From Candidatus Obscuribacteraceae bacterium (GTDB taxonomy: Bacteria > Cyanobacteriota > Vampirovibrionia > Obscuribacterales > Obscuribacteraceae): a DNA stretch of 64,000 nucleotides. Position numbers and translations under genes: made by a program. Shown in pieces: positions 1 to 5,109 of this stretch. The stretch spans positions 160,001 through 224,000 of the forward strand of contig JBGASG010000001.1 of the NCBI GenBank assembly GCA_044229845.1. Reading direction: 5' to 3'. Every line of letters starts with the position of its first letter. Position 1 is the first letter of the stretch. A model generated the notes under the pieces. The model worked only from the letters and a program-made list of their open reading frames with translations, had not been told where the DNA came from and ran no database searches.

Positions 1-812
1 CGTCCGACAGCTTTGGCAATCGGGCGCAGGCTGGCTACCAGGGCGATCATGTCTTCCAGCGAGAGCGCCTGACGAGCGTCAGAAACGGACTCTTCCGGAA
101 TCGGGTGACATTCGATCATGAGACCGTCGGCGCCGCAGGCGACAGCGGCGCGAGCCAGGTCGGCGACCAGTTCGCGTTTTCCGGCAGCGTGGCTGGGGTC
201 GGCGATGACCGGCAGGTGGGTGAGTTGCTTGAGGGCAACTACAGCGCCCAGATCCAGGACGTTACGGGTGTAGGTGTCGAAGGAGCGGATACCGCGCTCG
301 CAGAGGATGACGTTCGGGTTGCCGTGGGCGAGGATGTATTCGGCAGCCAGGATCATCTCTTCAATTGTGGCGGAGAGTCCACGCTTGAGCATGACCGGGG
401 TCTGCACCTGACCGGCGGCTTTGAGGAGGTCGAAGTTTTGCATGTTGCGGCTGCCGATTTGCAGCATGTCGGCGTGCTGGGCGACCAGCTCGACTTTGTC
501 GGGCGACATGACTTCGGTGACGGTGGGGATGCGGTGTTTGCGGCTGCAATCCGAAAGGATGGAGAGTCCGTTGTCACCCATTCCCTGGAAGGAGTAAGGG
601 GAGGTCCGGGGCTTGAATACGCCGCCCCGCAGCATTTGAACGGGCGCTTCCGCCAGTTTGGTGGCGACGAGTTCCATCTGCTCGACGCTTTCGACTGTAC
701 AGGGACCGCCGATGATGAGCAGCTGTTCCCCACCCACCACACAGTCTTCGCCGATGCGAATCTGGCTTACGTGGGTGGGGTTCTGTTTACTTGCTAGTTT
801 TGCCTCTGACAC
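1..812 (-). CDS. aroF: 3-deoxy-7-phosphoheptulonate (DAHP) synthase, type I-beta, 3' end runs off the window
   Basis: Manual translation of the minus strand from GTG at 812 (SD AGGAGA upstream) gives [42 protein letters not shown]. Later motifs include [38 protein letters not shown] and MIECHP. Confidence 0.95.
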
Positions 813-861
813 GGTGACACTCTCCTTTTCCTGAACTGAATTGAAAACTTCGTGGGTGCTG

Positions 862-897
862 AAAAACGAACCCGGACCTTGCTTGCTGGGGTCCGGG
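862..897 (-). terminator. Attenuator terminator 2 (proximal), intrinsic
   Basis: RNA CCCGGACC-(11 nt loop)-GGUCCGGG followed by UUCGUUUUU, about 50 nt upstream of the aroF start. Confidence 0.85.
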
Positions 898-925
898 CGG
901 GTGGCATTTCTAAATGCGGCACTAC

Positions 926-988
926 TTAACCCGGGAACCCCCTGGCAAAAAAGAAGTAGCCGTAAAACCAGTTGCGTTGCGTAGTCAT
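926..988 (-). CDS. Aromatic amino acid attenuator leader peptide 2, MTTQRNWFYGYFFFARGFPG (20 aa)
   Basis: ATG at 988, TAA at 926. Seven of eight consecutive codons are W/F/Y. The 3' part of the ORF can pair with the 5' arm of terminator 2. Confidence 0.85.
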   Translation of the reverse strand: MTTQRNWFYGYFFFARGFPG

Positions 989-1021
989 AACTTCGTGAAT
1001 CTATCCTTTGCGAAAGGCTCT

Positions 1022-1055
1022 AAAAACGAAAGGACCGCAGAACTTGCTGCGGTCC
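1022..1055 (-). terminator. Attenuator terminator 1 (distal), intrinsic
   Basis: RNA GGACCGCAG-CAAGUU-CUGCGGUCC (perfect 9 bp) followed by UUUCGUUUUU. Confidence 0.88.
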
Positions 1056-1080
1056 ACCTGGAGTGCGTTGAGCTATCAGC

Positions 1081-1131
1081 TCATGCCAGGTGAACCTCAG
1101 GGAACCAAAAATAAAAGTAGGCGGTGGTCAT
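1081..1131 (-). CDS. Aromatic amino acid attenuator leader peptide 1, MTTAYFYFWFPEVHLA (16 aa)
   Basis: ATG at 1131, TGA at 1081. Six consecutive aromatic codons (YFYFWF). GGUUCACCUGG in the ORF pairs with CCAGGUGGACC, which overlaps terminator 1. Confidence 0.87.
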   Translation of the reverse strand: MTTAYFYFWFPEVHLA

Positions 1132-1191
1132 TTTCGTTGTGATTCTCTATTTATGGCGTGTCGCGGCGCTTTTTCCGCAGCACGTAGACCC

Positions 1192-1220
1192 ATGGTAATT
1201 GCTGGGTTGGATTCGGTCAA
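1192..1220 (-). promoter_or_regulatory. sigma70-type promoter for the leader/aroF transcript
   Basis: TTGACC-N17-TACCAT on the minus strand (-35 at 1215-1220, -10 at 1192-1197). Confidence 0.75.
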
Positions 1221-3566: not shown

Positions 3567-3947
3567 TCAGTGCACCGCTTTGGCGGTGGTGGCACCGCCG
3601 GTGCCGGGGCTAACGGCGCTGGCGCCTTCGACTGCTTCGTGAAAGGTCAGGTAGCTCTTGCCGTCGAAGACGGTGGTGTCCATCTCGCGTGAGTGCGCTT
3701 TCTTAAATGCGTCGCTGTGCACCCAGGCTTTGAAGGCGGCTTCGTCTTCCCAGCGGGTCAAAACCTGATATTCGTTGCCGCATGATTCGGGGGCGCTGCC
3801 CATGACCATGCGGCTTCCGGGTTTCAGAACATCGAGGCTGTGAAACCCGGGCTGATGCTCGACACTGCGGTCGCGCTCGCGAAACATCTTCTCGAAGTCG
3901 GCTTCCCGTCCCGCTTTCACCGGGATGTGATTGATTGATATGAACAT
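3567..3947 (-). CDS. Antibiotic biosynthesis monooxygenase (ABM/IsdG-HmoA-like) family protein
   Basis: N-x-I-x-V..GREADFE..F..R, PGF, and W..EAAFKAWVHSDAFKKAH motifs. Confidence 0.85.
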   Translation of the reverse strand: MFISINHIPVKAGREADFEKMFRERDRSVEHQPGFHSLDVLKPGSRMVMGSAPESCGNEYQVLTRWEDEAAFKAWVHSDAFKKAHSREMDTTVFDGKSYLTFHEAVEGASAVSPGTGGATTAKAVH

Positions 3948-4683: not shown

Positions 4684-5109
4684 CTACATCGAGGAAGCCA
4701 GTCTCAGGCGTTCGCCTTCGATGATGGTTCCAGCGCGTCCTTCGCTGCGCGGGAATTCGCGTCCGCGCTGCAGCAGTTGCTTCTCGTAGCTCTCCGGATT
4801 GAAGATCGAGCAGAAGTACTCGATAGCGGCGTCTACGTCGAAGTCACGGCAGGAGAAGATATCCAGTGTGACGAATCCCTTGTCAGGGAAGGTGTGGATG
4901 GAGATATGGGACTCGGCAATGAGCACCACTCCACTAACACCCCAGTCATCTGGGACAGCTCCACTGTATCTGAACACGTACGGAGGCATTATCTTCGTCA
5001 TGTCCAGTTGGTCGGGATAGGCGTCCAAGGCTTGGGAGACCAGATTCAGATCTGCCAATTTTTCCTTGTCGCAACCGTATGCCTCGAGAATAAGATGTGG
5101 TCCAAACAT
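4684..5109 (-). CDS. speD: S-adenosylmethionine decarboxylase proenzyme (class 1B)
   Basis: GPHLILE, GVSGVVLIAE|SHISIHTFP self-cleavage motif, and DIFSC. Confidence 0.95.
   Translation of the reverse strand: MFGPHLILEAYGCDKEKLADLNLVSQALDAYPDQLDMTKIMPPYVFRYSGAVPDDWGVSGVVLIAESHISIHTFPDKGFVTLDIFSCRDFDVDAAIEYFCSIFNPESYEKQLLQRGREFPRSEGRAGTIIEGERLRLASSM

Follow-up and report, generated by a model that had tools for sequence, protein, structure and literature searches.

Two tandem aromatic leader peptides as candidate transcription attenuators of a type Iβ DAHP synthase gene in Obscuribacterales and oxygenic cyanobacteria

The 64,000-nucleotide stretch of Obscuribacteraceae DNA analysed here (the window) begins within a minus-strand DAHP synthase gene preceded by two short, aromatic-rich open reading frames, which raises the question of whether two ribosome-dependent attenuators stand in series before a single gene and, if so, what they would sense. 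The gene, whose start portion occupies 1..812 on the minus strand, encodes a protein of 302 residues in all; the name aroF given to it by an earlier, sequence-only reading is right as to DAHP synthase, but the enzyme is of type Iβ rather than of the E. coli AroF type. The protein has no N-terminal ferredoxin-like/ACT domain: it matches PRK08673 only from model position 68, that is, over the barrel alone, and a domain search for the ferredoxin-like domain PF18152 before the catalytic barrel found none. We take this N-terminal domain to be what mediates feedback inhibition in type Iβ enzymes, and it is present in the genome’s second DAHP synthase (contig C18; 28.4 bits against a cut-off of 27). 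A covariance model of the first leader unit, described below, has one match in the window’s genome and none at that second DAHP synthase. Outside the window, tyrA, a chorismate mutase-prephenate dehydrogenase fusion, starts 14 bases behind the DAHP synthase gene.

Two leader units upstream of the DAHP synthase gene

All elements of the leader lie on the minus strand and are given here in transcript order. A motif scan places a sigma-70-type promoter, TTGACC-N17-TACCAT, at 1192..1220 (TTGACC 1220-1215, TACCAT 1197-1192; nine of 12 matches), from which transcription would start near 1185. Leader ORF 1 (1081..1131), encoding MTTAYFYFWFPEVHLA and a stop, has six aromatic codons (Y5 F6 Y7 F8 W9 F10) and contains the 5′ strand of antiterminator 1, GGTTCACCTGG (1086..1096), which forms 11 pairs with CCAGGTGGACC (1051..1061); the final five bases of this 3′ strand are common to intrinsic terminator 1 (1022..1055), a 9-bp stem at 1055-1032 followed by the U tract TTTCGTTTTT. 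Leader ORF 2 (926..988), encoding MTTQRNWFYGYFFFARGFPG and a stop, has eight aromatic codons and likewise contains the 5′ strand of antiterminator 2, GGGGTTCCCGGGT (929..941), whose partner GCCCGGACCCC (898-888) is at the same time the entire 5′ arm of intrinsic terminator 2 (862..898; stem 898-870 with eight pairs, or nine with a G-U, then TTCGTTTTT). A purine-rich ribosome-binding site for the DAHP synthase, AAGGAG, lies at 820..830 by sequence. The positions that the sequence-only reading had assigned to promoter, ORFs, antiterminators, and terminators were each reproduced base for base. Its description of the antiterminators as mutually exclusive with the terminators needs refining for unit 1, where exclusion is confined to GGACC: with just these five bases in common, the two helices leave six outer antiterminator pairs able to form alongside the complete terminator and to stack on it.

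Neither the promoter scan (one site versus 0.5 ± 0.5 in shuffles) nor the terminator scan (three versus 1.3 ± 1.3) rises above chance when taken alone, and the latter misses terminator 2 because its loop measures 11 nt. Folding z scores are -5.07 for antiterminator 1 (0 of 200 shuffles as good) and -3.72 for the whole of unit 1, and -2.11 for antiterminator 2 (six of 200 shuffles) and -0.77 for the whole of unit 2. A genome-wide scan for short ORFs in which at least four of eight codons are aromatic and behind which a hairpin, U tract, and long ORF follow found four aromatic candidates among 42 of all classes, two of them being these units. In the window, only two tRNAs match Rfam at the gathering score; the Trp, Phe, His, Leu, and Thr leader families, the T-box, and the riboswitches give no match for the leader region at that score, and nothing credible appears in 780-1300 at E values up to 10, where the best hit (E 0.31) belongs to an unrelated family. 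What settles the reality of the parts is the conservation and covariation of all four helices, presented below. Further upstream, minus-strand genes for an IsdG/HmuQ-like small protein (3567-3947) and an S-adenosylmethionine decarboxylase (4684-5109) show no link to the attenuators.

Conservation and covariation of the two units

The ortholog sample comprised 97 loci (L001-L097, duplicates included), three of which were dropped for too little upstream DNA. The element was expected to recur in relatives if real, and it does: units 1 and 2 occur together at 85 of the remaining 94 loci, in Obscuribacterales and oxygenic cyanobacteria. Five loci have unit 1 only, two (one genome counted twice) have two unit-1 copies, and one has neither; one more was scored as unit 2 only, yet unit 1 proved to be present. 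The two-copy arrangement (L024, genome G002), with two unit-1 copies instead of the 1+2 pair, represents a separate route to a double gate. A further 59 loci include 51 tandems, four with unit 1 only, two without the gene, and two unparsed; in at least one of those four (L161), unit 2 is present with an ORF that extends further. Leaders of this kind are absent from 12 DAHP synthase loci sampled at greater distance, in other phyla (L098, L100-L110). The element is present in Obscuribacterales but not special to them, being widespread in oxygenic cyanobacteria such as Okeania, Stenomitos, Nodosilinea, Laspinema, Lusitaniella, Phormidesmis, and a Gloeobacterales bin.

In a quick tree, the leader-bearing DAHP synthases form a single clade (84 rows, support 100) on a long stem, with two Lyngbya-like rows falling within Obscuribacterales at weak support; no direction of transfer can be read from this tree. 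Leader and gene clade travel together: in a 151-genome sample of the phylum, the unit-1 covariance model is found in 26 genomes, the gene clade in 26, and both in 25, the exceptions to the pairing being L136, where the gene behind the leader has decayed, and L248, where unit 2 is the only unit ahead of the gene. Neither leader nor gene clade occurs in any of the 57 genomes of the small-genome family f6, the exact unit-1 pattern is found in 123 of 201 genomes of the cyanobacterial family f18 with no control hits, and the covariance model is found in 75 of 104 genomes of the window’s own family. Unit 1 stands alone before the gene at L023, L025, L026, L135, L226, and L234 and unit 2 alone at L248, which suggests that each works by itself. 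The unit-1 model scores unit 2 weakly, at 24.8 and 15.9 bits, and the two may have a common origin. At another locus (L249; G201:C1 6186700-6188500), leader 2 is interrupted by ~1.6 kb of inserted DNA, which also parts unit 1 from the gene.

All four helices covary, as the sequence-only reading had anticipated for genuine terminator and antiterminator stems. In the unit-1 alignment (62 of 77 anchored sequences, with 15 close relatives or long-insert rows left out), 94.0% of antiterminator 1 cells are paired and nine of its 11 pairs have changed on both sides, while terminator 1 is 95.8% paired with both-side changes in six of 10 pairs; seven to 11 T are found among the 12 bases behind its stem core in 77 of 77 sequences. 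In the unit-2 alignment (43 of 63 anchored sequences), terminator 2 is 91.1% paired with six of 10 pairs changed on both sides, and antiterminator 2 is 90.4% paired with 24 both-side-changed cells versus 8.4 in shuffles, even if these fall in only three of nine pairs, a spread equalled by 181 of 500 shuffles. For every helix, 0 of 500 shuffles match the paired share or the covariation score, kin among the sequences not being independent, and slid registers score far lower. In unit 1, a shared base covaries with both of its alternative partners (59 U-A-U, 13 U-G-C, three U-G-U, and one C-G-C, with a single mismatch among 77). The conserved V-H residues of leader 1 and the conserved S/P-G end of leader 2 are explained by their codons doubling as the 5′ strands of antiterminators 1 and 2, respectively.

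The leader ORFs are similarly maintained. Leader 1 starts with ATG in 74 and GTG in four of 78 distinct homologues and stops with TGA in 77 of them; leader 2 starts with ATG in 62 and GTG in three of 74, the other nine being longer leaders in which no start falls within 14 codons of the cluster. At L004, L012, L021, L095, L175, and L221, which belong to several lineages, leader 2 has a long N-terminal part of 30-50 codons ahead of the aromatic cluster. Phe, Tyr, and Trp are all present in 62 of 77 leader-1 and 58 of 74 leader-2 clusters, within which synonymous codons alternate (TAT 80/TAC 57 and TTT 201/TTC 24 in leader 1). Spacing is nearly fixed: counted from the first base of the final aromatic codon, antiterminator 1 starts 8 nt on in 55 of 77 sequences; counted from the Trp codon, it starts 11 nt on in 55 of 69. 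The leader 1 stop follows 13 nt after the antiterminator start in 76 of 77. Ribosome-binding sites are weak, with medians of -2.55 versus -2.0 kcal/mol in shuffled sequences for leader 1 and -1.7 versus 0.2 kcal/mol for leader 2. Upstream of unit 1, 69 of 76 loci have a promoter-like motif. An internal promoter between terminator 1 and the gene is unsupported, with a motif inside the leader at only two of 76 loci, which tells against a dominant promoter downstream of 862.

We also compared the amino-acid sets of the paired clusters across 121 distinct tandem loci, after hand correction of six rows and removal of nine that were not tandem or did not parse. Trp is present in both clusters at 106 loci, in neither at 15, and in one only at none; the corresponding counts are 108, eight, and five for Tyr and 110, six, and five for Phe. 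Such joint change, which is new here, fits a series logic, under which a codon that one gate reads and the other does not would bring no benefit. Joint Trp loss is not significant after tree correction (sign test p 0.5), since it amounts to six changes on the tree and two independent well-supported pairs.

A proposed ribosome-positioned switch and its alternatives

We consider it likely that two working attenuators stand in series before this DAHP synthase, and we propose that they govern the aroF(Iβ)-tyrA operon in a ribosome-dependent manner. In each unit, the leader would be translated by a ribosome trailing RNA polymerase. With ample charged tRNA-Phe, -Tyr, and -Trp, this ribosome would clear the cluster and cover the 5′ strand of the antiterminator, the terminator would form, and transcription would end at the U tract; with one aromatic tRNA in short supply, it would wait on the cluster, leaving the antiterminator to form ahead of the terminator and to occupy the base of its stem. 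A polymerase released at unit 1 would then proceed to an identical test at unit 2. Because both gates must open, leak and induction range would multiply and the response would presumably be sharper. By way of illustration, if efficiencies of 0.9 and 0.2 are assumed, a toy model of one gate has a leak of 0.1 and a range of 8, and a model of two gates a leak of 0.01 and a range of 64.

Judged from sequence, the mechanism would be classical attenuation. The trp/pheA/his-type logic invoked by the sequence-only reading is borne out in its leader ORF, overlapping antiterminator, and intrinsic terminator, and the sequence-level grounds on which ribosome stalling could have been rejected, a want of conservation and an internal promoter, fail; what is missing is a trp-type protector helix (segments 1:2), none of which appears in the folds of either unit. 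The E. coli trpL leader has such a protector/pause helix 1:2, although not every classical attenuator does. The untranslated default is consequently predicted to be read-through, unlike in trpL.

To model the decision, each unit was folded with a ribosome set on every codon in turn, its footprint taken as 9 or 13 nt counted from the A-site codon. When the full stem is available, equilibrium folding favours the terminator in unit 1 of the window’s genome at every codon (at least 0.90) and in unit 2 across homologues (median at least 0.78), while in unit 1 across homologues its share goes from ~0.4-0.6 to 1.0. If the final three pairs of the terminator are kept from forming, a cut of our own choice that mimics the elongation complex, an antiterminator median of at least 0.93 flips to a terminator median of at least 0.97, within one or two codons of the cluster end in unit 1 and shortly past it in unit 2, and without a ribosome the antiterminator holds at this decision snapshot. 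Folding with and without the ribosome thus yields the anticipated switch at the snapshot but mostly not at equilibrium; as the terminators win at full equilibrium, the switch must be kinetic, with the antiterminator forming first. The further claim that shortage of any one of Phe, Tyr, or Trp opens each gate agrees with the flip near the cluster end but is footprint-dependent in leader 1, whose Trp codon and last Phe codon cease to open the gate at 13 nt. A rho gene was not found in any of five genomes tested, which favours the proposal; the weak ribosome-binding sites of the leaders count against it. A metatranscriptome search with the cyanobacterial homologue L121 as query returned three runs (shares 0.06-0.09), all contigs from other strains, whose matching pieces touch the leader and give no ends, strand, or level.

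The same data allow other readings. The terminators could be mainly constitutive dampers, or a single unit could switch while the other lowers basal expression. Equilibrium folding prefers terminator 2 at any ribosome position, the second antiterminator hairpin is weaker than the first (z -2.11) and found no placement in 11 of 74 homologues, and loci with a single unit exist, all of which would suit dampers. Antiterminator 2 nevertheless covaries with its partner, the aromatic clusters are kept in both leaders and altered jointly, and each unit occurs on its own ahead of the gene at some loci, so we regard this reading as improbable. In TnaC, a free ligand prompts the nascent peptide itself to arrest the ribosome, and the leader endings conserved across the photosynthetic and non-photosynthetic classes (FYFW-x-x-x-VH and S/P-G) might be taken to mean that arrest of this kind, rather than slow decoding of aromatic codons, operates here. 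These endings, however, coincide with the strands of the antiterminators and differ between homologues at positions of helix covariation, L028, L205, and L206 read the same RNA core in another frame, and the aromatic residues swap freely, with all-Tyr or all-Phe clusters among them; we accordingly think peptide arrest very improbable.

It is also conceivable that the switch is the one proposed but that it senses how fast U-starting codons in general are decoded, as affected by tRNA modification or translation stress, more than aromatic supply. MiaA modification is common to the tRNAs for Phe, Tyr, and Trp. MiaA has been tied to trp attenuation in Pseudomonas, according to the accessible part of the source (PMC13434334). 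Yet the clusters do not keep U-starting Ser, Cys, or Leu codons, and leader content follows the downstream pathway branch, as detailed below, both of which leave such an input little credence. We retain the reading of two attenuators that respond to aromatic aminoacyl-tRNA supply. If correct, it would mean that ribosome position controls transcription in Rho-less bacteria, in photosynthetic and non-photosynthetic classes alike, and would account for the safe retention of a DAHP synthase without a feedback domain. The element would then offer a short natural reporter for transcription-translation coupling in these bacteria and a simple target for aromatic-compound production work in filamentous cyanobacteria, and the natural series of one unit, two units, 1+1 tandems, and rewritten codon sets would make the value of a second gate directly testable.

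Rewritten leaders, reuse of the core, and known systems

Loci L209-L223 belong to genomes with two paralogous short DAHP synthase genes each, whose leaders carry complementary sets. In G405, G406, G408, and G412, Tyr-only pairs precede aroF with CM or tyrA and Phe/Trp pairs precede an aroF-CM fusion; in G418, G420, and G421, Tyr/Trp pairs precede aroF-tyrA and Phe-rich pairs a second aroF; and the two short genes of G020 have Tyr-only and Phe/Trp leaders, respectively. In G404 (L208 2690-2810, minus strand), a single unit 1 with a Trp-Trp leader precedes trpE-trpG. Leader content hence follows the downstream genes, being Tyr-only before aroF-(CM/tyrA) and Trp-Trp before trpE. A near-copy of the G404 unit lies before an aroF 7.5 kb upstream of the trpE unit, with an IS3-like transposase ORF, so named by look, between them. 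In G017 (L204 2350-2710, minus strand), Tyr-rich tandem leaders with TTG and GTG starts precede a PvcA (PF05141)/TauD/flavoprotein cluster, which would presumably consume, not make, tyrosine, and their position may reflect either chance capture or real control.

The unit-1 core also stands immediately in front of a tRNA block in two genomes, at G035:C4 ~87540-87700 (L205, minus strand) and G388:C4 ~71030-71200 (L206, plus strand), where it scores 58-60 bits and carries the Phe/Gln/Glu/His leaders MFFQEQQFHMRFA and MFLIQEQQFHTRFA; the two loci are syntenic and 75-80% identical. The block reads Phe, Gln, Gln, Glu, His, Glu, the first tRNA-Gln being listed by ARAGORN only in G388. Between tRNA-Phe and tRNA-Gln there is a second small ORF, Gln/Arg-rich and preceded by a strong ribosome-binding site. 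Larger tRNA arrays at G388:C47 and G035:C14 contain no Phe, Gln, Glu, or His tRNAs, and six of six stretches covering the other tRNA arrays of G035, G388, and G405 have no unit-1 match. These arrangements would be consistent with a portable, codon-programmable switch, in which pairs of feedback-less DAHP synthases divide control through rewritten leaders and the core gates a tRNA block, a proposal on which we find ourselves evenly balanced. If it holds, the three-isozyme logic of E. coli would be attained in Obscuribacteraceae by attenuation, not allostery, and ribosome speed would set tRNA supply via a leader written in the block’s own amino acids.

Tandem T-boxes exist. Tandem riboswitches are likewise described, as for B. 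clausii metE (as cited in PMC3641672, seen in excerpt), and both kinds resemble the present element in placing two terminator gates in series, but they bind ligand or tRNA directly, without a leader peptide. Salmonella mgtCBR, in the excerpted account, comes closer, its single leader comprising two ORFs and a separate switch for each, the tandem attenuators mgtM and mgtP (PMC3641672); these respond additively to differing signals, ATP and proline, and do so without intrinsic terminators, whereas here the same signal set would be read twice at two intrinsic terminators. Single aromatic leaders before DAHP synthase genes are known as well. In the Corynebacterium glutamicum aroR-aroF operon, an F-Y-F leader precedes DAHP synthase and stalling raises transcription, according to the summaries of Neshat et al. 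2014 in the accessible portions of PMC11802643 and PMC4046766; this is one leader of three aromatic codons, without Trp and from Actinobacteria, set beside ours by description, as opposed to two units of 6 + 8 codons for Phe, Tyr, and Trp. As its Tyr codon is reported in the available text to be unresponsive to Tyr, the leader responding to Phe only (PMC11802643), codon content can overstate what is sensed. The Acholeplasma uORFC-13-1 motif, in the part of PMC8632094 consulted, is a predicted Phe-codon uORF with a terminator before a 3-deoxy-7-phosphoheptulonate synthase gene, and differs in being a single, Phe-only unit from another phylum. In E. coli trpL, pheL, and pheST, too, the leader ORF overlaps an antiterminator in competition with an intrinsic terminator (PMC11802643, PMC3641672, both in part), but these are single units for one amino acid, and our element has no Rfam match. 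Single aroF leaders and one other tandem attenuator, mgtCBR, are thus already published. A 2016 survey, as far as its accessible text goes, describes reliable data on attenuation in cyanobacteria as absent (PMC4833913), and the literature searched, which included few subscription papers, holds no report of this tandem element, although the leader-gene tables of that survey could list these ORFs.

Further leader peptides, which speak for the attenuation reading, occur elsewhere in the window’s genome. At G000:C19 41635-41724 on the plus strand, a Trp-Trp-Trp leader, MLSIATIANSWWWTRNEQGEPMACRVSAP, precedes trpE; no U-tract terminator was found there, and this leader may act on translation. On the minus strand of contig C3 (L138), a Leu-rich leader with a terminator precedes a leuA-like gene (G000:C3 192325) and an Ile/Leu/Val-rich leader with a terminator precedes ilvD-ilvC (G000:C3 190432). 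Finally, a plus-strand leader ending in IIIIGG (G000:C1 695872-695975, L139) is followed by a terminator and an ORF that, named from its sequence, is ileS-like.
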